This document shows positions 41,300 through 64,000 of a stretch of 64,000 bases of DNA, piece after piece. The stretch's first letter is position 1, and each line of letters opens with the position of its first letter. The notes under the pieces were generated by a model. The model was not told the DNA's origin and did no database searches. It worked only from the letters and a program-made list of their open reading frames with translations. This DNA is from an uncultured beta proteobacterium (GTDB taxonomy: Bacteria; Pseudomonadota; Gammaproteobacteria; Burkholderiales; JAEUMW01). The DNA lies in contig CAVTGS010000012.1 of NCBI GenBank assembly GCA_963734295.1, forward strand, positions 586,429-650,428. The letters run 5' to 3'. A program made the translations under genes and the position numbers.

Positions 41300-41375
41300 T
41301 CCCCGATAGCTCAGTCGGTAGAGCGACGGACTGTTAATCCGCAGGTCCCTGGTTCGAGCCCAGGTCGGGGAGCCA
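41300..41375 (+). tRNA. tRNA-Asn (anticodon GTT), CCA encoded
   Basis: tccccgatagctcagtcggtagagcgacggaCTGTTAAtccgcaggtccctggttcgagcccaggtcggggagcca. Cloverleaf checked by hand: 7-bp acceptor, GCTC/GAGC D stem, CCTGG/CCAGG T stem, TTCGAGC T loop. Close to E. coli tRNA-Asn. Confidence 0.9.
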
Positions 41376-46599: not shown

Positions 46600-46721
46600 A
46601 CAGTTCCCGACCCCGAAGCTCGTCGATGCCGTCCGGGTGACCCGGCACAACCCATTCACGTTCCACTCTTAAACTCGCGTCGCCAATGAGTTTGGCTCGA
46701 TCTGGAACCTGACCAGGGCGC

Positions 46722-48461: not shown

Positions 48462-50080
48462 CTGGAAAGATCAATCGGCTGCTCGCGGCGCGCGATGCCC
48501 AGGGCCGCCGCGAGCGCGCCGGCGTCGATTGCCTGCGAGGTATCGATCACGACGGCGTCCTGCGATTCCTCGGCGGTCAGGTCTGTTGCCCGGTCGAGCT
48601 GCCGCTCCAGGACCGGCAGCCCTGCCTCGGACGCGTCCTGGCCGGCCTGCTCGCGAGTCACGACGCGTTCGCGCAGGGCGTCGGGGTGTGCCCGACAGGC
48701 GAGGATGCGAAACGCGGCGCCGGTCTCACGCGCCAGCGCGCGGCACGCATCGCGCTCGCCGCGGTCGAGAAACGTCGCATCGAGGACCACCGAATAGCCG
48801 GCGGTGAGCACGGTCTCCGCCAGCACTCTCAGCCTTCCGTAACTGCGCCGCGTCGCGTCCGGCGTGTACAGTCCCGCATCGACGGCCGACCCGCTGCGCG
48901 ACTCGGCGGACAAACCGGCGAGCCGCTTGCGCTCGACGTCCGAGCGCACGCGGATGAGATCGACCACTTCCAGGAGCGCGCTCGTGGCCGTGGTCTTGCC
49001 CGCGCCGGCCACCCCGTGGGTGATGAAGAGACCGAGCGGCGCGGTCGATGTGAATCGCTCAGCGAGCTCGAGATAACCCTGGATCCGGGTCTGCGCGTCT
49101 GCCGCCGCGCCAGCCTGCGCGCCCCTGATCGTGGCGACGGTCGCACGCACCAGCGCGCGATAGACGAGGTAGTAGCGCAGCACGGCGAGGCCCGCGTAGT
49201 CGCCGGTGCGCTCGAGATAGCGGTTCAGCAGGCGCCGCGCCAGATCCGAGCGGCCGCGGTGCGTGAGGTCCATGACGACGAAGGCGATCTCGCTCGTCAC
49301 GTCGACCCAGCGCAGGCGCGGATCGAACTCGATACAGTCGAAGATGAGCACGTGCCCGGCATGCAGCGCCATGTTGCCGAGGTGCAGGTCGCCGTGGCCC
49401 TCGCGCACGAAACCTTCGGCGCATCGCGCGGCGAAGGTGGCGACGAGACGCCGATGCTCGGCTTCGCTCCAGTCGCGCAGCCACGCGAGCGACGCGCGCA
49501 TCTTGGGGTCGGCGAGCCGGCGCTGGAGCGCGGCGAGATTCTTGCGCACCGGTCCTCGCACTGCTTCCGGGGCACCGTAACCGTCTTCTCTTGTGTCACG
49601 CGCGCAGCCCGCGTGAAACGCGGCGACCGCGTCGGCGAGCTCGTCCGCGAGCGCGGGCGTGACCATTCCAGTCGCCAGCAGTCGCGAAAGCTCTGTTCCG
49701 CGTTCGAACTCGCGCATCCTGACCGCCCACTCCACCGCGCTGCCCGCTCCGGCGATCACCGGCGCTTCCACGCTGCCCGTGATCGGGACGACATCGACGT
49801 ACCAGTCCGGCGCGAGCCGGCGGTTGAGCCTCAACTCCTCCCGGCAGAAGTGCTCGCGCCGCGGCAGAGTCGTGAAATCGAGGAAACCGAGGTCGACGGC
49901 CTTCTTGATCTTGTACGCATAATCGCCCGTGAGGATCACCCACGAGATATGGGTCTCGATCACCTCGATGTGCCCGACCGGATGGGGATAACGCGCTGGG
50001 TCGCCGAGCGCCGCGACGAGCACCGCCTGCGATGCGAGGGACGTGGATGGTTCGGTCATGGACGAGAGGGACCGCAGCAC
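48458..50080 (-). CDS. bifunctional aminoglycoside-phosphotransferase-like kinase / P-loop kinase fusion protein
   Basis: 540 aa. N-terminal APH/protein-kinase-like fold with [12 protein letters not shown] (HxDxxxxN). C-terminal P-loop [12 protein letters not shown] (AAA_33-like). Confidence 0.7.
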
Positions 50081-50096
50081 CGCGGCCCGGGGCCGC

Positions 50097-53000
50097 TTAC
50101 TTCGGCGTCAGCGCGAACTTGCTCTCCACCATCTTCTTGTCGGCGGCCTCCACCTTCTCCACCGCCTCGATCGCGACCCGGTCCATCGGCAGCTTGCCCT
50201 GGGTCGAGAATTCCTCCTTGACCACATCCGCCCGGCGCTGCGCGAGAGCCTTGAGCTCCTCGTCACTCACCTGCTCGCCCACTTCCAGCCGCGCGAGCAG
50301 CGTCTCCGCGATCTGCGTCCGCATCTGCTCTTTCGCCTCCCTGGTAAGCGGCTTGCCGTCGGCGGTCTGAGCCTTTTCCGCTGCATCTCTAACCTTTGCG
50401 AGCTCGTCCTTGCCGAACCGCTCGGAGAAGAGCGTCTGGATCGCGTCCTGATTCTTCGGGTCGGTGACGTCGAGCAGACCCGGATCTTCGCCCTCCTTGA
50501 GCTTGAAACCCGCGCGCTTGGCGAGCTCGCGGCGCACCCGGAACGACCGGATCGCATCTGCGTCCTGCGCTGCATACACCGGCCGGATGCCGACCTTGAG
50601 CTGCGGCCGCTTCTCGAGCGCGGTGGCCACCTTGGCGAGCTTCGCCTTCTCCGGCGGCAGCAGCGCGTCGCTGCCGGGGTCGAAGGAGACTGCCTCGAGT
50701 TGCTCGCTGTCCCCTCCAAGCAAAGCTCCCAGTGCCCGGAACGGTGCCGTGACGATCTTCGTGAGCACATTCACGAGCACCTTCCACACGAGGCCGCCGA
50801 TACTGAACTGCGGATCGTCGAGGCTGCCGGTTACCGGCAGCCCGAGGTCGATCTTGCCGTCGGCATCCTTCAGGAGCGCGATGGCGAGCGCGAGCGGCAG
50901 CTTCACCGCGTCGGGGCTTTCCACCTGCTCGCCGAGCGTGAGCTGATCGATAATGACCTTGTTCTCGCCCTTCAACTGGCGCTGCTGGATGAAGTACTCG
51001 AGGTCCGCGTCGAGCTTGCCGGACGCGATGCGGTAGCCGGCGAACTTCGCCGAGTACGGGGTCATGCTGGTGAGCTCGACGTTGCGGAAGGTGGCGGTGA
51101 TGTTCAGATAATCCGTGGGGGCGAACGGAAAAAGATCGCCCGAGAAGCGCGCCAGTCCGTACTCGTCGACGGCCCCTTCCAGTTTCATCTGCGCCTTGCT
51201 GCCCGGGCGCGTGGAGAGGTTGTTCACCGTGCCGTCGAGGCTGTGAACCCGGGTGCCGAACTGCGGTGTCAGCGTGAGATCGGCGAAAAAGAGCTCGCCC
51301 TTGTTGACCCGGATGCGCTGAATGTTGACGGGAAAGAGCGGCGGCGCGGCCGGCGGCGCGGCGGCGGGCTTCGCGGCCGGCTTCTGCGCCGGCGCGGCGC
51401 CGAACCGGACCGAGCTGGTCGCGTCCTCCCGGCCCACCTGGCGCGAGCTGTCGCCGGCTGCCGGAGCCGCCGCCTTCGCTTTCTCGAACGCGGGCTTCGG
51501 TCGCTCGTCCGCCCCGCCCTTGCCGCCCGACGTGCGCAGGATGCGCTGGACGTTCAGGGTGCGGTCCTCGTAGATGATGAACTTGCCGCCGGGCCGGTCG
51601 AGGCGGATCTCCGCGATATCGACCCGCCCCGGCTCGAGCTTGAAGTCGATGCCGCGCACGTCCATCATGTCCCAGCCGAGAAAACGCTCCTTGGTGCCTT
51701 CCTCGACGAGATCGAGCTTCGCGACCTGGAAACCGCCGTTGAACTGCGCGGTCGGCTTGCCGTCGCGCAGGGCAAACGCATACTTGCCCGCGGCGGAAGC
51801 GCTGCCGGACTTGAGCACGAGCAGGGCGAACCGGCTTACGTATCGCTCGCCCAGCTTGAGCGGCAGCTCCTTGAGCGCCAGGGTGCCTTCGGCGGCGGGG
51901 GTGCCGGGGACGAGCGGACCCCTTCGACGCGAACTGTCCGCCGGGCTGCACACCGAGATCGAGCTCGTAGCGAACCGCCTGCTTGAGGTCGCTCGACACG
52001 CCGTCGAGCTTCACCCGGATCGGCTCGATCTTGACCGCGACCGGCGGCGCCATCGCGCGGTCGGTGAAGGTGATGCCGCCGTCCACGACCTCGATCGTCT
52101 TGAGTCCGATGCGCCATGGCTGCTCGACGCCTTTGCCGGGCTCACCCGCTGGCTCGGGCCGCTGCTGCGCTGGCGCTGCCGCCGTCGCACTCTTCGGCGC
52201 CAGACCTGCCCAGTTGAGCTTGCCGTCCGCGTCGAGCCAGGCATCGCCCCGCGGCTTCGAGATCCTGAGCGCCTCGAACTGCGCCGACTTGTCCTTGTAG
52301 TTGGCGCTGCCCGTGCCGAGCTCGACGGCTGCGAGCGTGAAGATCGGCGCCTGCTCGCGCGGCGTTACGCTGATGTCCGAGAGCCCGAGGGTGATCCCGT
52401 CGAGGGTCACCTGCGAGCCGGCCGGGGCGTAGTCGATGACCGCAGCGAAGCCCAAGGCGACGTGCTTTACGCTGGCGTCGTAAGGGGTGATCGCCGCGTC
52501 GTCCGAAAAGGCGAAGCCGAAGTCGGCGACACGCAGCTCCTTGATGGAGATTTTCCACGGCCCTTCGTCGGCGGCAGGTTTCGCACCCGCGGCGTCGGCA
52601 GCGGTCTCCCGGGCCGCCGCGGCACCCTTCAACTTGAGCAGCTCCACCCAGTTGATGAGATTGTCGGACCCCCGTTGGGCGCCGAGGCCTCCCGCCCTTG
52701 ACCAGGAACTTTTCGAGCACGAGCTTTCGCTCACCCAGATCGAATGTGCCAGGGCCGACCTCCACTTCATCGAGCCGCAGCACCCGATCTTCCTTGTTGC
52801 GGGACTTGAGCGCCCAACCCTTGAGCTCGGCCTTCATGTCGGTGAGATGGAGGCGCAGCTCGGGCTCTTTCAGGTCGATCTCGTAGGCCGTGCTGAGATT
52901 GGCGGTACCGCTCGCGATCTCGAAGTTCACGAGATCCGCGCCGTAGCGCCAGAGCTTGGGCGCCGACAACGCCCGTGAGCGCGACGATGCCGCGCGACTG

Positions 53001-53645
53001 GATGGGAGAGACGCCGAGCTCGCCCTCCCATTTCAGCTGCTCACCTTCGGGCGTGCGGGCGACGAGGATCTGCTTGCCTTCCTGGTTGGGCAGCGTGCTG
53101 AAATCGTTGAGGACGAACTGGACCGGATCGACCTGGGTCTTGAACGGCTCCGCGCGGCGCTCGTCCGTGAACTCCACGCCGGCGCGATCGACTTCCAGCT
53201 TGTCGATGATGACGCGAGGCAGCGGCTCGCCCGGCTTCGGTTCTTCCTGCGGCCGATTCTTGGTCGCGTCCTCGATCAGCCGGGCAAAGTTGAGGCTGCC
53301 CGCCTTGTCGATCACGGCGTTGGCAACCGGCCGCGCGAGCGAGATCTCGCGGAAGCCGAACGCACGCTGGGTAAGCGCCGGGAAGATCTCGTAGTCGACG
53401 AGCAGGCGCTCGAACCCCGCCAGCAGCGACCCGTCCTTGTCCTTGAGCGAAACATCCCTGATCTCGAGCTTGAGATCGAATGGGTTCAACTTGATCTCGC
53501 CGACGGTGAGCTCGCGCTGCAATTCCTCCCGCACGAACTTCTCGAGCTGGCTGCGCATGAGGGGCGGAACCGCGAGGAAGCCGACCGCAGCGAACAGCAC
53601 TACGGCCGCCACCAGCGCGACGCCGGCGATGACGAGCTTCTTCAT
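50097..53645 (-). pseudogene. DUF748/AsmA-like large envelope protein, interrupted by three frameshifts
   Basis: One continuous homologous reading needs four frames. These are 53645->~52970 (MKKLVIAGVALVAAVVLFAAVGFLAVPPLMRSQLEKFV...IQSRGIVALTGV), ~52968->~52690 (SAPKLWRYGADLVNFEI...LVLEKFLVKGG), ~52660->~51920 (DNLINWVELLKLKG...LDLGVQPGGQFASKG) and ~51920->50097 (PLVPGTPAAEGTLALKELPLK...KFALTPK*). The last junction sits in a C4/G4 run at 51919-51922. Confidence 0.65.
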
Positions 53646-53729
53646 CGGGCCGGCGGGCGCGCGCGAACTCGCACGAGACCCCTCAGGCGAGGCAATGCGG
53701 TTGCCTCCAAGGTGCTGCGCCGCAGCGTC

Positions 53730-54371
53730 TTACGACTTGACCGGGATCAGCTTGCGCTCGGCGAGCGCGTTGGCAATGAGCTTGGCGAAGCCCGGTGCCT
53801 CCTGGGTCACGCTGCCCGGCGCGAAGGTCTGCGTGGTGCCCGCCCAGACCAGCTTGTCGGTCCGCACGTCCCAGAGGTTGGTCTCCACCGTCACCACCTC
53901 GTACTGGTAGGCGACCGGCGGCGTATAGGTCACCGCCGAGCTGTAATAGCCATAGAAGTTGTTGTAGTAGCCGACCCCCGGGACCGCCGTCGGCGAGAAT
54001 CCCGGCGCGTACTGGGTTTCCTTGTCGGTCTTGACGAGCCGCGCCACCAGGAAGCCGTCTGCGCCGACGTTCTTCGCCGCCTGCTCCATCGCCTCGCGCG
54101 AGGGCTGCTGGTCGCGCGGCAGCAGCGTGTGGCCCGGCACGGCGTCTACTCCGCGCCGCGTGAGCTCGGCGGCGAAGATCTCCTCGAAGGTCTGGCTCAT
54201 GGCGCCGTCGGAGCCCAACCCGAGCACGATGATCTTCTTGAAGGGACCGCCGCTATAGGCCGGATCCTGCCAGACGTTCACGATCTTGGTGGACGTGGCG
54301 CAGGCAACGAGCAGAAGGAACGGGAAAACGGCTGTTGCGATGCGGCGGGTGATCGAAGGGGTGTGCGCCAT
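53730..54371 (-). CDS. lipoprotein (DUF4136-like)
   Basis: 213 aa with lipobox FPFLLLVAC and the C-terminal pattern ...VTVETNLWDVRTDKLVWAGTTQTF.... Confidence 0.5.
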   Translation of the reverse strand: MAHTPSITRRIATAVFPFLLLVACATSTKIVNVWQDPAYSGGPFKKIIVLGLGSDGAMSQTFEEIFAAELTRRGVDAVPGHTLLPRDQQPSREAMEQAAKNVGADGFLVARLVKTDKETQYAPGFSPTAVPGVGYYNNFYGYYSSAVTYTPPVAYQYEVVTVETNLWDVRTDKLVWAGTTQTFAPGSVTQEAPGFAKLIANALAERKLIPVKS

Positions 54372-54500
54372 GTTCTCTCCGGAGGATATTTGGATTTAAG
54401 TTCGGGGAAGCTGCCCCGCGCGCCGGCTCATGACGGCATTGTACCGCTCGCGGTGGGCGCCGCCATCGTTTCTCGGAGGGTCCCGTCGCGACCAGACGGT

Positions 54501-55142
54501 CTAGCTAGGCGCGGCAGCACGGGGAGCCGGCGGGGCGGCCCGCACCGCCTCGGCGATCTGCCCTGCCAGGACGGCGAGCGCGCGACTCATGCCGGCGGCG
54601 TAGGGGCCCGGCCCGGGCTCCGGGATCGGCTCCACGATTTCGGACTGCCGCGTGAACAGCACCTGAGCCGCATCCGGCGACAGCAGCTCCCAGCGGGCGA
54701 CGAGCACGACACCCTTCCCCGCCACGGGCTCGAACTGCAGCACCCGAACCGGGATGCGCACGGCGATCTCGCGGTGGCGCGACCAGGGCCAGACAATCAC
54801 CCGATCGCTCGCCAGCAGACGCGACAGGTTCTCGCCCAGCACGCGCTGCACCTCCTGGTCGAGCGGCGCGCCCCAGCTGTGCCGCGCATCGACACGCAGC
54901 TGGTTTGCCGCCTCGCGCGAAACCATCTCGTTGCGGTCGAGATAGGCCGGGATGGCCACGGGACCGAGGCCGACCGCAATGCCCGACGCTTCGAGCCGGG
55001 TCGGTGGGACCGTGGAATCGAGCACGTAGGTCGGCGCGGGCGGCGGCGTGCCGGGGCCGATGTTCACGCATGCGGATACGCCGATCATCAAAAGCAGCAG
55101 CGCCCAGCGCCGGACTCGACCGAGGGGCAAGTGCGCGTTCAC
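54501..55142 (-). CDS. ABC-transport auxiliary lipoprotein (PqiC/DUF330 family)
   Basis: 213 aa with lipobox LLLMIGVSAC and ...GLGPVAIPAYLDRNEMV...WGAPLDQEVQRVLGENLS...VRIPVRVLQFE.... Its start overlaps the MCE gene stop. Confidence 0.7.
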   Translation of the reverse strand: MNAHLPLGRVRRWALLLLMIGVSACVNIGPGTPPPAPTYVLDSTVPPTRLEASGIAVGLGPVAIPAYLDRNEMVSREAANQLRVDARHSWGAPLDQEVQRVLGENLSRLLASDRVIVWPWSRHREIAVRIPVRVLQFEPVAGKGVVLVARWELLSPDAAQVLFTRQSEIVEPIPEPGPGPYAAGMSRALAVLAGQIAEAVRAAPPAPRAAAPS

Positions 55143-56176
55143 GGTTTCGCCTCCTCGCCGGGCCGGCCGCGGATGAGCGCGTCGGGCCGCTTCTCCAGCT
55201 CCGTCGCCAGCAGTCGAATCGATCGCGCGGCGGCGCTCAGCTCCTTCAAGGCGGTGTTGAGCTCGTAGATCAAGGGGGAGGTCTCGCTCGTGAGGTTCTC
55301 GATGTTGCGCAGCGTCTGCTGTGCGCCGACGAGCGTGTTGTCCCCGCTCTCGGCAATGCGGTTGATGGCATCGGCGACGGTGTTCACGCGTTTCTCGGCC
55401 GCGGCAGCAGTAATGCGCACCTGCTCGAGCGTCAGCGTGCCTTCGGCCAGCGTTCGCTTCGCCGCCGCAGCGGTGCTGTCGAAGGTCGAGGTGACGCGCG
55501 GCAGGCTTTTCTCGACCTGCACCAGGGCACCAGTCGCGGCGGCGAGCATGTCGCGCACGTTGCGCCGGTCCTTTTCAGCGGGCGACCCCAGCACGTCGTT
55601 CAGGTTCTCCAGCACTACACGCAAGTCGGTCGCGATCTCCCGGATCGGGAGTCCCGTCAGAAATTCCTCCAGCTCCTGGGTCCTCGACGGCAGCGTAGGA
55701 ATCTCCCACCACCCGGGCGGTGCACCATGCCGGTCGATAGGTGTATCGGGCTCGAAGTCGAGCTGGACCCGCTGTTGCCCGGTCACGAAGCTGATCACTT
55801 CGAGACGCGCGCGCAGGCCGAATTGGTCGACGACTTCCTGTCTCATGACTTCGATCTCGGGATCGGCCGCGCCGCGCTCTTTTCTCCCCAGGATCTCGAC
55901 GCGCTCGGTGAGCCTGCCCTCCACGGGAAAGACGAAGAGCTTCGCCTTCGGATCGTAGGCCGCACGGATGTTCGTTACCTCTCCCACCTTCACCCCGCGA
56001 AAGGTGATCGGGGCACCCAGCTGCAGACCCGTGACACCCGCATCGAAATTGAAGATGACCGGCGTCGCCCTGCCTGCATGCAGGATCGGGGTCAGGAAAA
56101 TCAGGCCCAGCGCGACCAGGGCCAGCGCACCGAGAATGAAGGCGCCGATGAAGGCTGGGTTGCTCTTGGTTTTCAC
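55139..56176 (-). CDS. MCE-domain (MlaD/PqiB-like) protein
   Basis: 345 aa. N-terminal TM (AFIGAFILGALALVALGLIF), MCE domain (...LQLGAPITFRGVKVGEVTNI...), and a long helical C-terminal region. GTG start at 56176. Confidence 0.8.
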   Translation of the reverse strand: MKTKSNPAFIGAFILGALALVALGLIFLTPILHAGRATPVIFNFDAGVTGLQLGAPITFRGVKVGEVTNIRAAYDPKAKLFVFPVEGRLTERVEILGRKERGAADPEIEVMRQEVVDQFGLRARLEVISFVTGQQRVQLDFEPDTPIDRHGAPPGWWEIPTLPSRTQELEEFLTGLPIREIATDLRVVLENLNDVLGSPAEKDRRNVRDMLAAATGALVQVEKSLPRVTSTFDSTAAAAKRTLAEGTLTLEQVRITAAAAEKRVNTVADAINRIAESGDNTLVGAQQTLRNIENLTSETSPLIYELNTALKELSAAARSIRLLATELEKRPDALIRGRPGEEAKP

Positions 56177-56230
56177 GGTCGGGATTGTGCCACGGGCGAC
56201 GCGGCATGCGCAGCCTCGCTGGCGGGCTCC

Positions 56231-57004
56231 TCACCGCGGGTGAGGAAGCGGCGCACGCGTGGGTCCTCGCACTCCTCGCACCAGCACTTTGGGATCGCCG
56301 GCCGCGATCATCGTCTTCGTCTCGGCGTCGAGAAACACCGAATTGGTGCCGATCGCGAAGATGCTGGGCAGCTCGTGGGTGACCATCACTACGGTCGCGC
56401 CGAGGCTGTCACGCAGCTCGAGGATGAGATCGTCCAGCAGGCGCGAGCTGATCGGGTCGAGGCCGGCGGAGGGCTCGTCGAAGAACAGCGCTTCCGGATC
56501 GAGCGCCATTGCACGGGCGAGCCCCGCGCGCTTGCGCATGCCACCGCTGATCTCCGACGGATAGAAGTCCTCGAAACCCGCCAGCCCGACCAGCGCGAGC
56601 TTGAGGCTGACGAGCTCGCGGATCTCGGCCGCCGAGAGCTTCGTGAACTGCTCCAGCGCCAGGGCCACGTTCTCGGCGAGCGTCATCGAGCTCCACAGCG
56701 CACCGCTCTGGTAGAGGGCGCCGAAGCGGCGGATCAACTGCTGGCGGGCGTCTTCATCGAGATCCCACAGGCTCGTGCCGTCGACCATCACTTTGCCCTC
56801 CTGTGGCGGCACGAGGCCGATCAGCGAGCGCATCACCGTGCTCTTGCCGCAGCCGCTGCCGCCCATGATGATGAAGATGTCGCCGCGGCGAATGGTGAAG
56901 TCGAGATTGCGCTGGATCACCCGTTCGCCGTAGCCGACCGTGACCCCACTTACCACGATGTGGTCGCGCAGAGGGGCAGCGGCAACGGGCGTCGGCGCTG
57001 ACAT
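56231..57004 (-). CDS. MlaF-like ABC transporter ATPase (3' end apparently frameshifted)
   Basis: Walker A GGSGCGKST, signature SEISGGMRKRAGLARA, Walker B ALFFDEPSAGLD. The in-frame tail ...DPKVLVRGVRGPTRAPLPHPR* is junk-like. The +1 frame reads CEECEDPRVRRFLTRGEEP... and ends at 56174, overlapping the MCE GTG start. Confidence 0.8.
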   Translation of the reverse strand: MSAPTPVAAAPLRDHIVVSGVTVGYGERVIQRNLDFTIRRGDIFIIMGGSGCGKSTVMRSLIGLVPPQEGKVMVDGTSLWDLDEDARQQLIRRFGALYQSGALWSSMTLAENVALALEQFTKLSAAEIRELVSLKLALVGLAGFEDFYPSEISGGMRKRAGLARAMALDPEALFFDEPSAGLDPISSRLLDDLILELRDSLGATVVMVTHELPSIFAIGTNSVFLDAETKTMIAAGDPKVLVRGVRGPTRAPLPHPR

Positions 57005-58197
57005 CACCAGCCGAGCGTGTCGTAGATGACGGTGATGATCGCGTTCGCGACGACGATCAGCACCAGGCTCGTCACCACCGCGGAAGTGGTCACGATGCCC
57101 ACCGCCTCGGCGCTGCGCCCGCACTGCATCCCGCGCAGGCAGCCCGCCATCGCGACCAGCACTCCGTACACGGCGGCCTTGATGAGCCCCTTGACGAAGA
57201 AGACCAGATTGAGCGCGCCCAGGGTCTGGGCAATGTAGCCCTCCCACGAGAGGTCGAGCAGCGTAACGCCGACGAATGCTCCGCCCAGGATACCGAGGAA
57301 GCTCGCATAGAGCGCGAGCAGCGGCGTCATCACGAAGAGCGCCAGGATACGCGGCAGGACCAGGAACTCGACCGCGGCGAGGCCGGTGGTGCGCAGGGCA
57401 TCGATCTCCTCGTTCACCTGCATGGTGCCGATCTGCGCCGCGAACGAAGCGCCTGCCCGCCCCGCCATGATGATGCCGGTCATGAGCGCACCCATCTCCA
57501 GCACCATCGCGATGGCGACCAGGTTCGCGACGAAGATCTGCGCGCCGAACGCGGTGAGCTGGATCGCGCCCAAGAAGGCCAGAATCATTCCGGTGAGGAA
57601 ACTGATGAGCGAAACGATCGGCAGCGCACCGGGGCCGCAGTCGGCGAAGTTCGTGATGAAGTCGGCGCGGCGAAAGCGCGCACGTCCGGTCGCGAAGCGC
57701 ACGAGGGCGATGGCGACCTCGCCGACGAAGGTGAAGACTTCCCCCAGCGAGCTCGCGAAATCGATGGCCGCCATGCCGACGCGCCCGAGGATTCCGAGCC
57801 GGACGTCCGCCGTCCCGGCGGCCGAGCGCGCCGGGACGGCGCGGGCGAGGCGGAAGACGCGCTGCGCTCCATCCGGCAGACCCGAGGTGTCGAATGCGGC
57901 GCCGAGGCGGGCCGCCACCGCTTCCACCTGGCCGATGAAGACGACGAGGGCGCTGTCCCAGCTGGTGATGCCGCTGGTCTCGAAGGCGACGCGTTTCTTC
58001 GGCTCTGCGGTTGCGAGGCGCGCCTCGACCTCGCCCGGCGCGGGAAGCCGCTGCGCCTTGGTCCAGGGTCCGGCGAGCACCAGCACGAGCGCGTCTGCGC
58101 CCGCATCCTTGAAGCCAAGCTCGAGCGCACCCGCGGCTGCGTCCTGCCCCGCGCTTCCGGCTGCAGCAGGCGACGCGGTCACAGACGATTCGCGCAT
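57004..58197 (-). CDS. MlaE-family ABC permease with a fused N-terminal STAS/MlaB-like domain
   Basis: 397 aa. Residues of about 20-130 look STAS-like (LVLVLAGPW...RVAFETSGITSWDSALVVFIGQV...GLPDGAQRVFRLA). The C-terminal about 260 aa is an MlaE permease (...MQVNEEIDALRTTG...). The stop overlaps the ATPase ATG (ATGA). Confidence 0.75.
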   Translation of the reverse strand: MRESSVTASPAAAGSAGQDAAAGALELGFKDAGADALVLVLAGPWTKAQRLPAPGEVEARLATAEPKKRVAFETSGITSWDSALVVFIGQVEAVAARLGAAFDTSGLPDGAQRVFRLARAVPARSAAGTADVRLGILGRVGMAAIDFASSLGEVFTFVGEVAIALVRFATGRARFRRADFITNFADCGPGALPIVSLISFLTGMILAFLGAIQLTAFGAQIFVANLVAIAMVLEMGALMTGIIMAGRAGASFAAQIGTMQVNEEIDALRTTGLAAVEFLVLPRILALFVMTPLLALYASFLGILGGAFVGVTLLDLSWEGYIAQTLGALNLVFFVKGLIKAAVYGVLVAMAGCLRGMQCGRSAEAVGIVTTSAVVTSLVLIVVANAIITVIYDTLGW

Positions 58198-58233
58198 TGC
58201 TCCCAGCCGCTATTCGGGCAACACATTCAGCAC

Positions 58234-58539
58234 CTACATCAGGACCAGCACCGCGTGCGGATCGCCGAGCGGCCCGCACTTCCGGTAGATCTCGGCGATC
58301 TCGCCAGAGCGATACAGGCGCGCGAGCACGCAATTCGTCGCGAGATGAAAACCCGCGTCGCCCCGCTTCAGCATGAGGGCATAGGGCTCGTAGGAGAACT
58401 GGTCCTCCGAGAGCATCCACTCGAGCGGATCCTTCGCTTTCAGCGTCCCTTCGGCCGCTTGGGCGTGGCGGGGAGTCGACGCGACGATGGCGAACGCCAG
58501 CGTGCACGCGGCCACGGCCGCGATTAATCCGTTCTTCAA
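58234..58539 (-). pseudogene. amino-acid ABC substrate-binding protein remnant (signal peptide joined to the C-terminal lobe)
   Basis: 101 aa. Signal peptide MKNGLIAAVAACTLAFAIVAS..AQAAEGTLKA is followed directly by ...FSYEPYALMLKRGDAGF...LYRSGEIAEIYRK, which normally lies at the C-terminus of about 300-aa GltI-like binding proteins. Confidence 0.4.
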
Positions 58540-58666
58540 GCGAGGACTCCTTGCTGCGCAATGCGAAACGTCCGGCGCGAAGTCTATCAGAGGCGGATCG
58601 AGGAGGTCGGGCGACGTGCTCTTACCTTACGTCAGGTTGTGGACGGCCATCGCAGTCTCCGGGTGA

Positions 58667-59353
58667 TCACTCCGTCGTCATGTGCGCCGCAGCGGCGGCC
58701 AGCCAGCCGTCGAGCTCGAAGTCGCTGCTGACCGAGCCGTCAGGGTTCCACAGGAGCAGGTCGGTGGCGGTGGGCGTTTCGCTCACCGGGGCGCGCGGGA
58801 TCGTTCCCAGCGCGAGTCGCCCTGCCCCGCCGCCCTCGGCCAGGCGCCGCACCGATGCGACGAGCTCGTGCCCTACCAGCGGAATCTGCGTATTGAGCAC
58901 GCCGAGTCGATCGGCGGCAAGCTGCACGCGAAATGCGCTCACGGCCGTGCCGCGCCCGAACAGATTGGCCTCGTCGAACACCGCCACCGCCAGCGACGAA
59001 TCGAACGACAGCCCGCGCCGTGAGAGGTGCGTGTTGCCGACCAGCGCCCAGACATCGTCGACCACTACCACGGTGGAGGCCATGCGCACGTGCGAGAAGG
59101 GCCCGGCGCCCGGCGAGAAAATCGCGATGCGGTCGCCAGCGGCGTCGAGCAGCCGCGAGAGCGCCTGGTGCCAGCGGTCATTGCGCACCCAGGCAAGCGG
59201 CGGCGGCGTGCCGGGCAGCAACTCGGCAGCAGATCGAGGATGCTGGCACCTAAGGGCATGGACCCTCCATGCTGCCGCAGCAGTTGATCGCAGCCCGGCG
59301 CTACTGGCCGAGTCGCGGCGGCCGAAGCTACCCCTCTCGCGCAACACGGTCAA
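58667..59353 (-). CDS. hypothetical protein with one degenerate PLD/HKD-like motif (possibly a gene fragment)
   Basis: The 228-aa ORF has only a TTG start. It contains HVRMASTVVVVDDVWALVGNTHLSRRG, which resembles H-x-K...DD...G(S/T)xN...RS of PLD-superfamily domains but with K->R, N->H and an insertion. Confidence 0.35.
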   Translation of the reverse strand: MTVLRERGSFGRRDSASSAGLRSTAAAAWRVHALRCQHPRSAAELLPGTPPPLAWVRNDRWHQALSRLLDAAGDRIAIFSPGAGPFSHVRMASTVVVVDDVWALVGNTHLSRRGLSFDSSLAVAVFDEANLFGRGTAVSAFRVQLAADRLGVLNTQIPLVGHELVASVRRLAEGGGAGRLALGTIPRAPVSETPTATDLLLWNPDGSVSSDFELDGWLAAAAAHMTTE

Positions 59354-59552
59354 TCAGACTTTAGGCCGACGACATCTTGCGGTAATGCAGCATGGCGGGG
59401 GCGATCCGCAGGGGGATCGGGCAGCGGAGGCGAACACGGATCGCGCATGTTGACGCGGGCGCTGTATACGGTGCGCTTCACTGCGCACGCGCCGAGGCGC
59501 CACATTGCGCGACCCATCCCGCAAAGCCGCCGTCGCGCCCGCGTGGGAACAA

Positions 59553-62500
59553 TCAGTGGTTCCCAACGCTCCATCCGCGCAAGGCGGCGTCGATCTCCGG
59601 CAGCTTGACTGTCCACTGCCCTTCGAGCGCGGTGGCGCGCAGCGCTCGCAACTCGGCGTGGAGCGCGTCGCTGCGCTCGCCGCGACCGGCCCGGGCGAGC
59701 AGCCTGCCGCAGGCGCTCATGAACTCGGCCCAGGGGAAGGGCTCTTGGCGGGTGTAATGGATGATGGCTTCGGCGTAGCGAAGCGCCGGGTCCCACTCAC
59801 GCGCTGCGAGCGATGCCGTGATCGCGGCATCGTAGAAATAGAGATGTGCGTGGCTGACGCACCCCGCGGCGAGCAGCGCCTCGCCCTCGGCGAGTGCCCA
59901 GCGGCGGCGATCCGGGTCGTCGGTCGTCTGCGCGATGAAGCCGAGCACGGTCGGACCGATGTACTGGGGTCCCGTAACCCGCGTCAGCGCCCATGCGGCA
60001 TCGAGGAGCTCGGCCGCCTCCGCGAATTCCCCCAGGCCATGTGCGGCAAGGCCGATCTGCGCCAGAGCCTCGGCCTCGAATCGTTGCGCACCCAGGCGCC
60101 GTGCGAGCTCCAGGGAACGCTCGGCTTCGACACGAGAGAGCGCCCATGCACCGCGCATGTGCTGGAAGGCGCTCAGGATGTCGCGCGCGAGCATTTCCGC
60201 ACGCAGGTCGCCGATGCGTGCGGCGAGGTCGAGCGCGGCGTGGCAGTGCTTGGTCACCGCGTCGGGGTCGGCGAGATAGAGGTCGAGGACCGCGAGCATG
60301 GGCAGGTTGGCGAGCTCGATGCGGACGAAGCCGTGCTCGCGAGCAAGCGCGACGCAGCGCCTGAAATGCTCGTGGGCCGAGCGCATGCGCCCCTCCTGGT
60401 AGAAGGCGTCGCCCAGCCCGCCGAGCGCACGCGCCTCTGCGAGCGCCGAGCCCGCACGCCGGGCGTAGTCCAGCGCCTGCTCGTGGGCGCGTCGACACGC
60501 TTCCACGTCGCCCTGCGGAAAGTGGACGTTGCCGCGCAGGAAATGGATCTCGGCCAGCGCTTCGGCATCGTCGATCTCAACAGCCGCGGCTTCCGCCTCG
60601 GCCAACGCCGCGAGCGCCTCGCCGTAGCGATCGAGGACGCGCAGTCCAGCGGCGACACCGATGAATGCATGGCACCGCTCGCGCGCGCCGTCGGCACACT
60701 CGATCGCCTGGCGGAACGCCTCGACCGAGTCGCCCGTGCGGCCAAGCTCGCGCAGGATGTCGCCGCGCAGGCAGGCCAGGCCGTGCTGCAGCGGACGCTC
60801 ATCGGCGAGGGCGAGCCCGCGCTCCGCGAGAGCGAGCGCCCGTTCGTAACGAAACTGCCCGGCCTCTGTCTTCGCGGCGCGGACGTAGGCGGCCGCAGCG
60901 CCGGGATCGCATGCCGCGTCGAGATGCTCCGCTGCGAGCGTGGCGTCGTCCCCGGCGTACCAGGTCGCCGCCTGCCGATGAAGCGCCTGGCGCTTCGACT
61001 TCAGCACCGATGCATAGACCGCCTCGTGGATCAGGGCGTGAGCAAAAAGCCAGGCGTCGCCCTCCGGGCGTACCAGCGCCTGCTCGGTGAGCTTCGTGCA
61101 CGCATACTCGGGGTCGGCGACGAGCTCGCGCAGGGCAGCGAGCGCGAACCTCTGACCGAGCACGGCAGCCGCCTGAACCGCCTGCCGGTCGACAGGATCG
61201 AGCCGGTCGAGGCGCGCCAGCACCAGGCTCTGGATCGAACCGGGCAGCGCTCCACGCTCTTGGCCTGCGCGCAACAGCTGGTCGAGGAACAAGGGATTGC
61301 CTTCCGCCCGGGCGACGCACGCTTGCACGAAACCCTGATCGTGGGCGCCGTAGTGGCTCGCCAGCAGGGCCGCCTCAGCGTCGCTCAGGGGGCCGAGGTC
61401 GATGGTGGTGAGCGCCGTCCCCCCGGTGGCGGCGCGCCAGCCGGCGCCGATTGGATCGTTCTCCGGGCGAGTGATGAGCAGCAATATGACGGGGAACGCA
61501 CGCATGGCGGCCGCGAGGCGCGCCAGATGATCGAGCACCCCGGCGTCGGCCCAGTGGATGTCTTCGACGACGATCAACCGCGGCTGCCGTGCGCTCCGCG
61601 CACGCATGAGCGCGTCGAGCAGCGCCTGCCGGCCGCCGGTGCGGGCGGTATTGTCCATCGCCTGCAGCGCGTGCTGCGCATCCGTCGTCTGCGGCAGATC
61701 CAGGAAGTCGTTCAAAAAGACCACGAGATCCTGCCCGATCCACCCCTCGGCCAGCGCTGCCTGCGCTGCGGTGTGGCGCGCCGACATCGGTGCGTCCGGT
61801 CCGAGATCGACCAGGTCGCGTACGAGCACGTCGATCGGCCCTCCAGCACCCCCGCCGAAATCGAGCACCAGCGTCTTGTGGCAGGCGAAGCCCTGCTCGC
61901 GCGCGATCCCCGCACACGCCTCGAGCAAGCGGCTCTTGCCGATGCCCGCGTCGCCGCGCACCACCACCACATGGCCGCTGCGCCCCGCGAAGCAGTCGCG
62001 GACGATGCCCTCGAACTGGCGCAGCTCCGCTTGCCTGCCTACGAAGGGTACCGACCGGCGCTGCTCCCACGGGTCGGTCATGCGCCGAGCGCGCCACAGC
62101 TTGAGGGGTCTCGACATGGCCGGCATCGCAACTTCCGCGACCTCGTCCGCCTCGAGGCGATCGGCGAGCGCCTGCCGTACCCGGTGCGACAGCCACAGCT
62201 CGCCCGGCGCGGCTGCCTCCGCGATGCGTCCGGCAACGCTCACCGGCTCGCCGCTGACCGCCAGGCCGTCCGCGTCCTGAGTCACCACCAGCGTGCCGCT
62301 CGCGACCCCGAGGTGGACGCCGATGCCGGCCGTCCCAGACACCTCGTCGCGGATCGCGAGTGCAGCGCGCACGGCGCGCTCCGCATCGTTGCCGTGCGCC
62401 ACCGGCACACCGAAGACGGCCATGACCCGGGAGCCGACGTGGCTCAGGACGGTACCGCCGGAACGGGCCACGCAGGCCCCTACCCTGTCGCGCCAGGCGG

Positions 62501-63413
62501 AGAGCAGCGCGTGCATTTCCTCGGGGTCGGTCGTGCCCGCGCTGGCGTCGGCGAGCTCGGCGACGAGCACCGTCGCCTGACGCAGCTCCGGTCCGCCCAG
62601 CGTCGGCGTAGCTGCCTGGGAAGGCGCGGAAGCGCCGGGAACCTGCTCCGCCGCCGCGGCGAGAGAGCCAGACACGGCCAGCGGTGGTGCGCGGCGCTCG
62701 CGCAGGATGCGTCGGTACAGATCCTCCGTCGTCGCTTCGGGCGAGATGCCCAGCTCGCGCTGCAGGATCGCCCGGCACAGCCGGTATTGCTTCAGCGCCG
62801 CGGCTTGGCGGCCCTGGCGATCGTACAGCGTCATCAGCCGGCGGTGCGCGTCCTCGCGCAGCGAATCGAGCGCGAGCAACCGGGTCGTGGTCTCCGTCGC
62901 ACGCGCGAGCTGCCCGGCTCGCTCCTGGCTCTCGGCGAGCCGAGCGAGCAGCGCGAGGGCCTGTTGGCGCCAGCGCTCGCGCTCGACCGAGAGCCACTCG
63001 TCGAACGCCGGTGCGCCAGCCTGGAAGCCCTCCAGCAAGTCGCCCCGGTAGAGCGCTGCCGCCCGCTCCAGGGCAACCGTCGAACCCTCCGCGAGCGCCG
63101 CAGAGTAATCGCGCACGTCGCACGTGAAAGCAGATGGAGACAAGGCAACCGTTGCGCCGTCGACCAGCAGCAGGTCGCCGTCGAGGCACTTGCGCAGGCC
63201 GGACAACGCCTGCCGCAGGCTCGTCCTGGCTTGCTCCTCGCCGCTCTCTCCCCACAGCAGGTCGGCGAGCTTGCCCCGCGGCTGCGGCCGCGCGCCGGAC
63301 ACGGCGAGGTATGCGATGAGCGCCCGCGCCTTGCGTCCTGGCAACACGATCTCCTCCGCCGCGTCAGCGATGAGAGCAAAGCCGCCGAAGAGTTCGAGAC
63401 GCAGCCTAGCCAC
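59553..63413 (-). CDS. AfsR-like multidomain regulator: SARP wHTH + BTAD / class III cyclase-like domain / P-loop STAND ATPase / TPR array
   Basis: 1286 aa, GTG start. wHTH+BTAD covers aa 1-245 (MARLRLELFGGFAL...LLWGES..EQARTSLRQALSGLRK...ALYRGDLLEGF...DEWL..ERERW...YRLCRAILQRELGISPE..T..LY). The cyclase-like domain covers aa ~278-445 (TVLVAELADAS...VGSRVMAVFGVPVAHGNDAERAVRAALAI). Walker A GDAGIGKS is at aa 487-494 (nt 61932-61955). The C-terminal ~600 aa are TPR-like helical repeats. Confidence 0.8.
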   Translation of the reverse strand: MARLRLELFGGFALIADAAEEIVLPGRKARALIAYLAVSGARPQPRGKLADLLWGESGEEQARTSLRQALSGLRKCLDGDLLLVDGATVALSPSAFTCDVRDYSAALAEGSTVALERAAALYRGDLLEGFQAGAPAFDEWLSVERERWRQQALALLARLAESQERAGQLARATETTTRLLALDSLREDAHRRLMTLYDRQGRQAAALKQYRLCRAILQRELGISPEATTEDLYRRILRERRAPPLAVSGSLAAAAEQVPGASAPSQAATPTLGGPELRQATVLVAELADASAGTTDPEEMHALLSAWRDRVGACVARSGGTVLSHVGSRVMAVFGVPVAHGNDAERAVRAALAIRDEVSGTAGIGVHLGVASGTLVVTQDADGLAVSGEPVSVAGRIAEAAAPGELWLSHRVRQALADRLEADEVAEVAMPAMSRPLKLWRARRMTDPWEQRRSVPFVGRQAELRQFEGIVRDCFAGRSGHVVVVRGDAGIGKSRLLEACAGIAREQGFACHKTLVLDFGGGAGGPIDVLVRDLVDLGPDAPMSARHTAAQAALAEGWIGQDLVVFLNDFLDLPQTTDAQHALQAMDNTARTGGRQALLDALMRARSARQPRLIVVEDIHWADAGVLDHLARLAAAMRAFPVILLLITRPENDPIGAGWRAATGGTALTTIDLGPLSDAEAALLASHYGAHDQGFVQACVARAEGNPLFLDQLLRAGQERGALPGSIQSLVLARLDRLDPVDRQAVQAAAVLGQRFALAALRELVADPEYACTKLTEQALVRPEGDAWLFAHALIHEAVYASVLKSKRQALHRQAATWYAGDDATLAAEHLDAACDPGAAAAYVRAAKTEAGQFRYERALALAERGLALADERPLQHGLACLRGDILRELGRTGDSVEAFRQAIECADGARERCHAFIGVAAGLRVLDRYGEALAALAEAEAAAVEIDDAEALAEIHFLRGNVHFPQGDVEACRRAHEQALDYARRAGSALAEARALGGLGDAFYQEGRMRSAHEHFRRCVALAREHGFVRIELANLPMLAVLDLYLADPDAVTKHCHAALDLAARIGDLRAEMLARDILSAFQHMRGAWALSRVEAERSLELARRLGAQRFEAEALAQIGLAAHGLGEFAEAAELLDAAWALTRVTGPQYIGPTVLGFIAQTTDDPDRRRWALAEGEALLAAGCVSHAHLYFYDAAITASLAAREWDPALRYAEAIIHYTRQEPFPWAEFMSACGRLLARAGRGERSDALHAELRALRATALEGQWTVKLPEIDAALRGWSVGNH

Positions 63414-63427
63414 GGACAGTTGCCACT

Positions 63428-63482
63428 TTCACGCTTTCTTCACGCTGGTGCTCACGGCAGCTTGACGGCACCTGCCTACGAT
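63428..63482 (+). promoter_or_regulatory. four phased heptamer direct repeats plus a -10-like hexamer (candidate SARP/OmpR-type activator site and promoter)
   Basis: TTCACGC (63428-34), tttc, TTCACGC (63439-45), tggtg, CTCACGG (63451-57), cagc, TTGACGG (63462-68), then 8 nt cacctgcc, then TACGAT (63477-82). It lies between the regulator start (63413, minus) and the ATG at 63540 (plus). Confidence 0.5.
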
Positions 63483-63539: not shown

Positions 63540-64000
63540 ATGACACTCACCGACTGCCGGGACAACCCCGTCTCCACCCATAATCGTACCGCCGTCGAAC
63601 GGCTCGAAGCGGCAACCGAGCTCTTGCACGGCTATTTCGGCGACCCGCTCGGCGCGATCGACCGCGCGCTCGCCGAAGATCCGGAGTTCGTGATGGGCCA
63701 CGCGTTTCGCGCGGGCCTCCTGATCACCGCTGCCGACGGCGCGGTGAAGCCCCTGCTTCGCGAAAGCGTCGAGGCGGGCGCAGCGCTGGCCCACCGCGCG
63801 AACGATCGCGAGCGCCGCCACCTCGCTGCGGCACGCGCCTGGCTCGATGGCGATTTTGCCGGTTCGATCCAGCGCTACGGCGACATCGTCGTCGCACTAT
63901 CCGCGCGACAGCTTTGCGCTGCAGGTCGCCCACATCGGCGATTTCCTGCTCGGCCATTCGACCATGCTGCGGGATCGTGTCGCCCAGGTGCTGCCCGCCT
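63540..64000 (+). CDS. TTC38-family TPR protein, 5' part (runs off window; apparent frameshift near 63893)
   Basis: ATG 63540 is preceded by gagagg. Sequence MTLTDCRDNPVSTHNRTAVERLEAATELLHGYFGDPL...DPEFVMGHAFRAGLL.... After ...YGDIVV the conserved continuation HYPRDSFALQVAHIGDFLLGHSTMLRDRVAQVLPA is in the +1 frame (from 63895). Confidence 0.6.
   Translation, partial: MTLTDCRDNPVSTHNRTAVERLEAATELLHGYFGDPLGAIDRALAEDPEFVMGHAFRAGLLITAADGAVKPLLRESVEAGAALAHRANDRERRHLAAARAWLDGDFAGSIQRYGDIVVALSARQLCAAGRPHRRFPARPFDHAAGSCRPGAAR

Follow-up and report, generated by a model that had tools for sequence, protein, structure and literature searches.

A predicted SARP-type activator with a degenerate cyclase domain and a STAND-type NTPase, and its putative TTC38-like target, in Proteobacteria

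Activators of the MalT/LAL type (LAL, large ATP-binding members of the LuxR regulator family) belong to the signal transduction ATPases with numerous domains (STAND) and combine ligand-sensing helical repeats and an ATP-dependent nucleotide-binding oligomerization domain (NOD) with a DNA-binding effector that acts on phased sites at promoters with a poor -35 element, and the mycobacterial proteins of the Rv0386 type are built as cyclase-ATPase-LuxR. Streptomyces antibiotic regulatory proteins (SARPs) figure in reviews as regulators of antibiotic production. They have been called "exclusively" actinomycete, proteobacterial matches being mostly devoid of the helix-turn-helix (HTH) or of the bacterial transcriptional activation domain (BTAD) (PMC7040171). 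The Streptomyces SARP-LAL regulators PimR, SanG and FilR join a SARP to an ATPase related to "guanylate cyclase/LAL" proteins and have neither a LuxR HTH nor a cyclase signature (PMC10972967). The present analysis concerns a regulator gene located at 59553..63413 on the minus strand of a 64,000-nucleotide stretch of DNA (hereafter the window) from contig CAVTGS010000012.1 of an uncultured beta proteobacterium. This complete gene encodes, in order, a SARP, a class III cyclase-homology domain that has lost most of its catalytic residues, a STAND-type NTPase and tetratricopeptide repeats (TPRs), and a TTC38-like gene adjoins it in divergent orientation. Taken as a whole, the model of a STAND-gated SARP that activates this adjoining TTC38-like gene is considered likely.

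The regulator is read from a single unbroken open reading frame (ORF) of 1286 codons plus stop, with a GTG start at 63413 and a stop at 59553-59555, and the plus-strand reading of the same interval was rejected as it yields no ORF. The coordinates and the length in residues had been given correctly in the original prediction, made from the bare DNA, in which the strand was left unstated. The G+C content at third codon positions (0.84) is like that of other genes of the 65-70% G+C window, and a protein identical to the regulator is present in the public protein collection (P0001). The domain order that had been proposed, winged helix-turn-helix (wHTH) and BTAD, cyclase-like region, P-loop NTPase and TPRs, is confirmed by profiles, structure prediction and comparison, and the motifs TVLVAE286L, VGS328RVMAVFG and GDAGIGKS (487-494) sit at the positions that had been assigned to them.

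The transcriptional part of the model starts at the N-terminus, where an OmpR-type winged-helix DNA-binding domain occupies residues ~1-100 (63114..63413, on the minus strand like all regulator features given below). It is recognized by alignment to AfsR and EmbR. Residues 21-239 align with the AfsR SARP structure 8hvr (E 3e-13) and with EmbR 2fez (E 4.5e-9), and a family profile of 119 sequences, built from the best 120 homologue matches, aligns with AfsR at E 7e-21. The Pfam model Trans_reg_C is weak at this place (aa 27-79, E 0.028, below threshold). The BTAD (PF03704) follows at aa 109-237 (62703..63089) with an E-value of 1.4e-24 and 87.6 bits for a cut-off of 22.1. In the family, conservation of the recognition helix ARTSLRQAL (aa 62-70) reaches 90% or more. 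On its wHTH, its BTAD and the promoter geometry described below, the regulator is classed as a SARP, its DNA binding and activation being predicted.

In parallel, alignment of the intergenic DNA revealed a tandem CGTGAA-n5-CGTGAA that is strongly conserved amid otherwise unalignable sequence. Written in the direction of the TTC38-like gene, the consensus is TTCACG-n5-TTCACG-n6-nnnACG-n5-yTCACG-n9-TAnnnT (58.5 bits), and in 12 non-redundant loci, drawn from three classes of Proteobacteria, the arrangement of four boxes plus TAnnnT aligns with no gap, the box offsets being 0, +11, +23 and +34 (spacing 11, 12, 11). In the window, the predicted operator lies at 63428..63467 on the plus strand and is made of four direct repeats, namely box 1 TTCACG (63428-33), box 2 TTCACG (63439-44), box 3 CTCACG (63451-56) and box 4 TTGACG (63462-67). 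At the conserved TAnnnT position stands the predicted -10 element of the TTC38-like promoter, TACGAT (63477..63482, plus strand), which begins 9 nt past box 4, or 8 nt when the boxes are taken as heptamers. Neither a recognizable -35 element nor a canonical sigma-70 promoter was found in the TTC38-like promoter region, and the absence of the latter fits activator dependence. At published SARP promoters, direct repeats are spaced 11 or 22 bp apart and overlap the -35 position, the 3' repeat lying 8 bp from the -10 (PMC10936776). The four-box promoter has this geometry, with respect to a -10 element that is itself predicted. Moreover, the conserved recognition helix is in keeping with the conserved box sequence.

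Relatives were compared in 80 species-representative genome loci, which fall into SARP-fused (14 loci) and SARP-less (~65 loci) groups; most of the 80 lack the SARP and encode cyclase-NTPase-TPR proteins whose N-terminus is short. In the 64-kb window, the exact tandem is found at this intergenic place only. With at most one mismatch allowed, the boxes are matched once per close SARP locus, always in the same intergenic place, and 5 times in 855 kb of SARP-less loci. In Skermanella, where the regulator is convergent and located 2 kb past the TTC38 gene, the sole exact tandem in 17 kb lies 81-97 bp before the TTC38 start and no tandem is near the regulator. Azospirillum displays the same pattern, the boxes staying with the TTC38 promoter. 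Finally, metagenome contigs were scanned by DNA only with the exact 18-position pattern TTTCACG-n5-TTCACG-n18-TSACG, which gave at least 121 matches. Among the 121 listed, a divergent SARP-type gene stands immediately upstream of 33, a TTC38-like gene immediately downstream of 29 and both are present at 20, and 28 of the 102 ORFs downstream of listed matches form one TTC38-like cluster. The orientation of the SARP and TTC38 genes recovered by the DNA-only scan is the one that had been predicted.

A reading in which the TTCACG boxes belong to a different factor, or in which the main role of the SARP there is repression or autoregulation instead of activation of the TTC38-like gene, is rather unlikely on these grounds. 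It can draw on the closeness of box 1 to the regulator start codon (14 bp from the GTG in the window), on two loci (L003 and L088) in which the boxes lie upstream of the regulator and a TTC38 gene is absent from the vicinity, and on the link between protein and site, which is a prediction from sequence. However, the boxes co-occur with SARP genes over three classes, at one per close SARP locus against 5 per 855 kb without SARP, and they follow the TTC38 gene where it is split from the regulator. The boxes overlap the -35 position, the -10 is conserved and a -35 element is lacking, which reproduces the published geometry of SARP activators, and the recognition helix is conserved together with the box sequence. 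Activation of the TTC38-like gene thus stays the preferred reading, and since box 1 is only 14 bp from the regulator start, occupancy of the boxes probably also limits transcription of the regulator itself (autoregulation).

The same promoter is found beside other genes. P0075 (L086 1505-1700) and P0072 (L087 5814-6000), two SARP-fused members with intact catalytic residues in the cyclase domain, have a four-box promoter that faces a divergent gene for a 357-aa Rv2258c-like S-adenosylmethionine (SAM) methyltransferase. P0022 and P0044 have the same four-box promoter facing DNA without an identified gene. These four promoters suggest a DNA-binding specificity that is family-wide and targets that vary.

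As a separate observation, a GNAT acetyltransferase gene stands divergent from the TTC38-like gene, with TTCACG tandems both ways, in Azospirillum soli (L089 10632-10845) and in the metagenome loci L102 and L205, and it may be a second regulon member. The box pattern also recurs, without an adjoining SARP, before genes for a ChrR-type cupin, LpxR, an LRAT/NlpC-like protein, a secreted 570-aa TPR protein and a ~1000-aa repeat protein. The recurrent non-TTC38 genes of the metagenome loci (L118/L163, L119/L148/L202, L125/L147, L203/L189, L130/L150) could be chance matches or repeated sampling of one organism, from which they are indistinguishable. Proposed as a regulon from the metagenome matches, the GNAT, ChrR-type cupin, LpxR, LRAT and 570-aa TPR genes were rejected, being inseparable from the ~50 chance matches expected.

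The TTC38 protein family, to which the putative target belongs, is conserved from bacteria to humans. In the window, the 5' part of the gene (63540..64000, plus strand) starts with ATG at 63540, preceded by a Shine-Dalgarno sequence GAGAGGA (63526-32), and runs past the window end. Its reading of 153 codons is 83% identical to a 456-aa counterpart located beside P0002, an 84%-identical regulator, and 61% identical to a 457-aa protein beside the Cupriavidus regulator. A 1-nt insertion near 63894 (63890-63896, plus strand) gives GTCGTCGCACTAT in the window versus GTCGTCCACTAT in the 84%-related locus L001 and shifts the frame after residue 118. Identity to the 456-aa counterpart is 96% over the 118 residues before the frameshift, and past the insertion the next frame carries on with the conserved HYPRDSFALQVAHIGDF.

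Linkage of this gene goes with the presence of the SARP. In the window and in loci L001, L002, L004, L007, L024, L056, L059, L061 and L064, the TTC38-like gene and the regulator directly diverge, and in Skermanella rosea and Azospirillum soli the gene is linked without being divergent. It is adjacent in none of the ~65 SARP-less loci, where the only match has 30% identity and lies ~3 kb off (L047). The protein is all-helical and is named "tetratricopeptide repeat protein" or, in some cases by UniRef, "tetratricopeptide repeat protein 38". Its conservation exceeds that of the regulator, with 60-69% identity across proteobacterial classes and ~95 invariant columns in the family, rich in His, Asp, Glu, Trp and Arg. 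Pfam and NCBIfam gave nothing past weak TPR matches, no solved sequence relative was found, and the AlphaFold2 (AF2) model (predicted local distance difference test, pLDDT, 93) matches generic TPR solenoids only, with a template modelling score (TM) below 0.5. No function for TTC38-family proteins was found in the literature. The hydroxamate drug panobinostat has been reported to hit the human TTC38 homologue as an off-target (PMC6885700) and, as a matter of speculation, this and the invariant His, Asp and Glu residues hint at a metal site in TTC38.

The BTAD of the regulator is separated by an Ala/Pro/Ser-rich linker (aa 245-275; 62589..62681), read from the translation and poorly conserved in the family alignment, from the cyclase-homology domain (aa 276-450; 62064..62588). 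The original prediction had left room for the absence of any significant cyclase match, and such matches were found at several levels. The Pfam model Guanylate_cyc reaches 20.3 bits over aa 294-432, slightly below its cut-off of 21.9. With phmmer, aa 273-449 align with the solved cyclase Cya2 (2w01) at E 1e-10 and the region also aligns with CyaB and CyaC, and the family profile matches cyclases at E 1.5e-26. In the same way, the AF2 model of aa 262-455 (pLDDT 93.1) gives TM values of 0.77-0.84 with CyaB, Cya2, CyaC and Rv1900c, including 0.82 for CyaB 3r5g (E 1.5e-16) and 0.84 for Cya2 2w01. The fold, as modelled, is that of a cyclase-homology domain.

The catalytic residues tell another story. 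When aligned with Cya2, CyaC and intact paralogues, five of the six catalytic positions are replaced, with E286 at the first metal-binding Asp position, S324 at the substrate Lys position, S328 at the second metal-binding Asp position, A385 at the substrate Thr/Asp position and S392 at the transition-state Asn position; R396, at the Arg position, is the only one retained. Both metal-binding aspartates are replaced, as had been read by eye, and the alignments show no intact Asp at these sites. Because the fold is kept and the catalytic hexad is not, the regulator is classed as a pseudo-cyclase and not as a functional class III cyclase, and the domain is, judging from its residues, catalytically dead. 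Its invariant or near-invariant residues (R278, E298, G319, G320, F334, G335, A339, R346, G369, G373, G388 and W440) correspond in the alignment to core positions common to ordinary cyclases and do not point to a new pocket.

Comparison between the two groups indicates that loss of catalytic residues goes with SARP fusion. The cyclase region is complete in 60 of the SARP-less loci, and in ~50 of these the two metal Asp are present together with the Asn and the Arg; their hexads are mostly D-K-D-T-N-R, some with Q, R or D for Lys, and ~9 of 60 depart from the hexad, for instance three DRDDPR loci and L080. The hexad is degenerate in 13 of the 14 SARP-fused genome loci and in ~110 of the 118 SARP-fused database homologues, in which it reads ESSASR, DSATGR, SDTTGQ, DNAxSR, DSGFRR, RQDxxA, RRSPHT, SRDAHR and others. 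Since the DNAxSR subgroup keeps only the first Asp and the RQDxxA subgroup only the second, cyclase activity appears to have been lost more than once, independently. A handful of SARP-fused members (P0044, P0072, P0075 and P0078) have the full hexad and scatter among the degenerate ones in a neighbour-joining tree of the NTPase-TPR region, a tree without support values that was used qualitatively only. The family therefore offers a natural series from enzyme to pseudo-enzyme, with cyclases without SARP, cyclases with SARP and an intact hexad, and many independently degenerate versions.

In the light of these replacements, it remains improbable that the regulator still works as a nucleotide cyclase, or as a nucleotidyl transferase of another kind, by means of non-canonical ligands such as E286 and binds DNA as a secondary property. 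The well-preserved fold (TM 0.82-0.84), the retained R396, the ability of Glu to coordinate metals and the few intact-hexad members, in which both functions can hence coexist, speak in its favour. Against them stand the five lost positions, including Asp2 to Ser and Asn to Ser, the variation of the replacements among close relatives (ESSASR, DSATGR, SDTTGQ, RRSPHT), which is a pattern of relaxed selection at the active site rather than of a newly formed one, and the structural nature of the positions that are conserved. A pseudo-cyclase within a predicted transcriptional activator is the assignment retained here.

Downstream of the pseudo-cyclase, an AAA_16 P-loop NTPase core is identified by Pfam (E 9e-18) and by its motifs at aa 456-642 (61488..62048). 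It contains the Walker A sequence GDAGIGKS (aa 487-494; 61932-61955) and the Walker B sequence LIVVED (aa 613-618; 61560-61577). In the 119 aligned sequences, R486, G487, G490, G492 and K493 of the Walker A pattern R-G-x-x-G-I-G-K-S/T are invariant, and E617 and D618 of the Walker B pattern hhhhED are present in 118. Further downstream, R649 and F790-x-H792-x-L794 are invariant in the family alignment. The latter residues belong to a conserved motif, WLFAHALIHEAVY, delimited from alignment columns at aa 788-800 (61014..61052), which is a candidate for the winged-helix His motif of the STAND module by analogy with the MalT/LAL family. For the NTPase/NOD region (aa 456-860), a relative of known structure was sought and none was significant, the family profile likewise giving no NOD match, so that STAND membership rests on the motifs and on the AAA_16 match. 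Given its Walker A and B sequences, the P-loop NTPase is assigned to the STAND-type AAA_16 group. The C-terminal part (aa ~840-1286; 59556..60896) is a TPR-like, putatively sensory region, with the Pfam families TPR_12, TPR_8, TPR_1 and TPR_MalT (the last one weak, E 4e-4) between aa 881 and 1070 and with LGN/Pins TPR structures aligning with aa 931-1116. Neither GerE/LuxR HTH nor NB-ARC has a Pfam match in the regulator.

A STAND NTPase followed by TPRs is also an architecture of defence, and the protein might accordingly be an Avs-like antiphage sensor whose N-terminal domain would be a DNA-targeting effector. With PADLOC, a generic TPR model and the Pycsar cyclase PycC were matched weakly (E 4.5e-7 to 2e-3). 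However, no STAND defence model was matched by PADLOC and the PycC matches reflect the shared cyclase fold only. The gene keeps a stable chromosomal synteny with one housekeeping-like neighbour across classes, together with a conserved operator, and no defence-island or mobile genes are nearby, the neighbours being Mla-type transporter and AsmA/DUF748 genes. The antiphage role is thus very improbable. The original prediction had favoured a transcriptional output over an enzymatic or antiphage one, and it is supported by the SARP domain, the dead cyclase, the conserved promoter and the lack of a defence STAND model.

The architecture is not rare. A homologue search with the full regulator gave 4915 proteins at E <= 1e-10, and thousands of homologues exist across Alpha-, Beta- and Gammaproteobacteria, in hosts including Cupriavidus, Aromatoleum, Thauera, Paracidovorax, Skermanella, Azospirillum, Steroidobacter and Rubritepida as well as many metagenomes. 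The best 120 are nearly all full-length (1250-1350 aa) and have the same domain order except for two fragments and P0112. The 118 that were aligned cover 92-100% of the query in nearly all cases, with 40-83% identity, and all but P0112 have the BTAD. The closest named relative is a partial Rubritepida sp. protein (83% identity). With aa 1-450 as the query, an exhaustive search gave 2884 clusters (50% identity) at E <= 1e-30, and among the 150 best clusters about two in three span the SARP and cyclase regions without a break. A phyletic survey thus places the architecture in a large proteobacterial family that is already in databases, where its members, if named, are usually called "BTAD domain-containing putative transcriptional regulator". 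No published study of a SARP/cyclase-like/AAA_16/TPR architecture was found in the literature; the family is uncharacterized under its generic name, and what is new here is a predicted operator and a predicted target. These homologues also bear on whether the ORF might be an assembly or annotation fusion of a SARP gene with a cyclase-ATPase-TPR gene, a concern raised at the outset and nourished by the apparent indel errors in other genes of the window. As over 100 independent homologues, found at full length in isolates and in metagenomes, have the same continuous architecture and length, and as the regulator ORF has no internal stop or frame change, such a fusion artefact has a negligible probability.

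The C-terminal ~1000 residues belong, by homology, to the cyclase-AAA_16-TPR lineage. Residues ~250-1278 share 35-50% identity with SARP-less cyclase-AAA_16-TPR proteins of the genome loci, and the nearest curated model, TIGR03903 (TOMM kinase/cyclase fusion), matches aa 247-846 at E 2e-51, with 175 bits that are far under its cut-off of 706. Two descriptions had been offered for the protein. That of a cyclase-ATPase-TPR protein with a DNA-binding N-terminus agrees with this homology. That of an AfsR architecture holds for the SARP part, which is homologous, and fails for the remainder, which is not of the AfsR NB-ARC lineage because AfsR aligns through the SARP domain only. The SARP module itself seems to travel, since in P0298 a SARP with 53% identity stands on a cyclase-less AAA_16-TPR backbone, which suggests that it behaves as a mobile output module. 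The NOD of P0298 is only 29% identical, and the protein may belong to a separate lineage.

Other combinations were observed along the way. P0298 and P0326 have about 1085-1100 aa. P0302 (1698 aa) contains a SARP, TPRs, an apparently canonical cyclase, an AAA_16 domain and an alpha/beta hydrolase. In P0112 (1086 aa), a zinc ribbon replaces the SARP in what is otherwise a 48%-identical, catalytically intact cyclase-NTPase-TPR protein.

From these elements a sequence of events can be proposed. Binding of a ligand by the TPR region would turn the AAA_16 NTPase, working as an ADP/ATP switch, towards oligomerization. SARP domains would then bind the boxes side by side, like the AfsR dimer on the afs box, and two SARP dimers would fill the four boxes, which are laid out as two pairs 23 bp apart. 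Once bound, they would stand in for the -35 contact that the promoter lacks and bring RNA polymerase to the TTC38-like gene. Active class III cyclases work as obligate head-to-tail dimers, and the cyclase domain is the N-terminal output of the SARP-less paralogues. The pseudo-cyclase might accordingly be an induced-dimerization joint that converts STAND activation into a correctly spaced SARP pair.

An evolutionary extension of this scheme, which we put forward as a tentative idea only, is exaptation of the cyclase domain from enzyme to mechanical relay. The ancestral switch would have dimerized cyclases for the production of cyclic AMP (cAMP). After fusion of the SARP, the same induced dimerization would have set two DNA-binding domains on boxes phased by 11 bp, and the active site would then have decayed independently in many lineages. 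If this were true, the intact-hexad proteins P0044, P0072, P0075 and P0078, with the same boxes, would be bifunctional and couple cAMP synthesis and transcription activation in one step.

Several points weigh against the activator model. DNA binding and activation are predicted, as are the -10 element and the transcription start, the latter placed about 7 nt after 63482. The role of the pseudo-cyclase as a relay or dimerization joint comes from analogy with active cyclases and is doubtful, and E286 could in principle bind metal. At the DNA level, box 3 is weakly conserved (nnnACG). A -10 element in the sense of the regulator was sought by inspection downstream of the boxes and none was conserved. 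The model does not account for the promoter of the regulator itself. Some members with the same boxes have other neighbours (an Rv2258c-like methyltransferase, AraC and others), and TTC38 is consequently not the sole target. Finally, the target gene of the window is frameshifted, by an assembly error or as a fresh pseudogene. Assembly error is likely, because the DUF748/AsmA-like gene and the region downstream of the regulator are frame-split as well, and the target is not read as a pseudogene.

These two regions lie on the minus strand on the downstream side of the regulator. Just after the latter, the interval 58210-59552 has no family assigned. An ORF within it (58667-59353) was rejected as a member of the system, as it is not conserved in Cupriavidus and the similarity to its counterpart runs through three frames; of a 313-aa neighbour of P0002 (L001), it matches no more than the final 59 residues (81% identity). 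Either both gene calls are wrong in this region or indels are present. A cluster for Mla-type lipid transport follows at 53730-58209 (minus strand), with a STAS-MlaE permease fusion (57004-58209), an MlaD-like gene (55139-56230) and a DUF4136 lipoprotein gene (53730-54395), and the gap at 56231-57003 probably holds the Mla ABC ATPase. Next to it, a DUF748/AsmA/YhdP-like gene (50100-53729, minus strand) is split over three frames; one frame encodes its N-terminal 320 aa (profile positions 14-226) and its C-terminal 637 aa (profile positions 524-1037), and in between only a different frame is open. The split suggests two more indels and an error-prone assembly.

Elsewhere in the window, a gene for a PAS-GGDEF-EAL protein (46713-48461, plus strand) is convergent with one for a 549-aa fusion of an APH phosphotransferase and an AAA_33 kinase-like domain (48458-50107, minus strand). 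A single tRNA-Asn is present at 41300-41375. The segment 14000-20000 has a G+C content of 0.59-0.61 versus 0.64-0.71 elsewhere in the window and could have been acquired horizontally.

The family would extend the view of SARPs summarized above: its members in Alpha-, Beta- and Gammaproteobacteria have the SARP domains complete, the promoter geometry is the textbook one for SARPs, and the conserved target is not related to antibiotics. The system can be tested directly through its predicted operator and target, which also provide a route to the function of the TTC38 family. If the model is true, it would be the first regulatory handle on this family, and the inducer sensed by the TPRs might be a TTC38 substrate or ligand.

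Among described systems, AfsR of Streptomyces coelicolor (8HVR, 8K60, 8JKE), the prototype of the "large SARPs", has a wHTH and a BTAD homologous to those of the window regulator. Both proteins have a central P-loop NOD and C-terminal TPRs, and in both cases the promoter has direct repeats phased by 11 bp over the -35 position, with 8 bp between the 3' repeat and the -10. However, full-length AfsR (8k60, 8jke) aligns to aa 22-296 of the regulator only, and the family profile aligns with it at positions 4-256 only. The NOD of the window regulator is an AAA_16 of another lineage, with a cyclase-homology domain placed between SARP and NOD, and its four TTCACG boxes contrast with the two AfsR boxes of other sequence. 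The family is found in Proteobacteria and its predicted target is a TTC38-like gene instead of afsS or antibiotic clusters. As the NOD is not homologous, the regulator is not an AfsR-type large SARP.

The SARP-LAL proteins are close in another way, since the window regulator also has a SARP and an ATP-binding AAA_16 module without a C-terminal LuxR HTH. It differs by keeping a complete, well-folded and apparently dead cyclase domain, a distinction drawn from the description in PMC10972967 only. The proteobacterial cyclase-AAA_16-TPR adenylyl cyclases have the same order of cyclase, NTPase and TPRs; they have mostly an intact hexad and short N-termini, whereas in the window regulator a SARP has been added and the hexad lost. 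Finally, the MalT/LAL activators follow the same logic as that proposed here, and a weak TPR_MalT match is present in the regulator. In contrast to their C-terminal LuxR domain, its DNA-binding domain is an N-terminal one of the OmpR/SARP type, and a pseudo-enzyme domain is interposed between this domain and the predicted switch.

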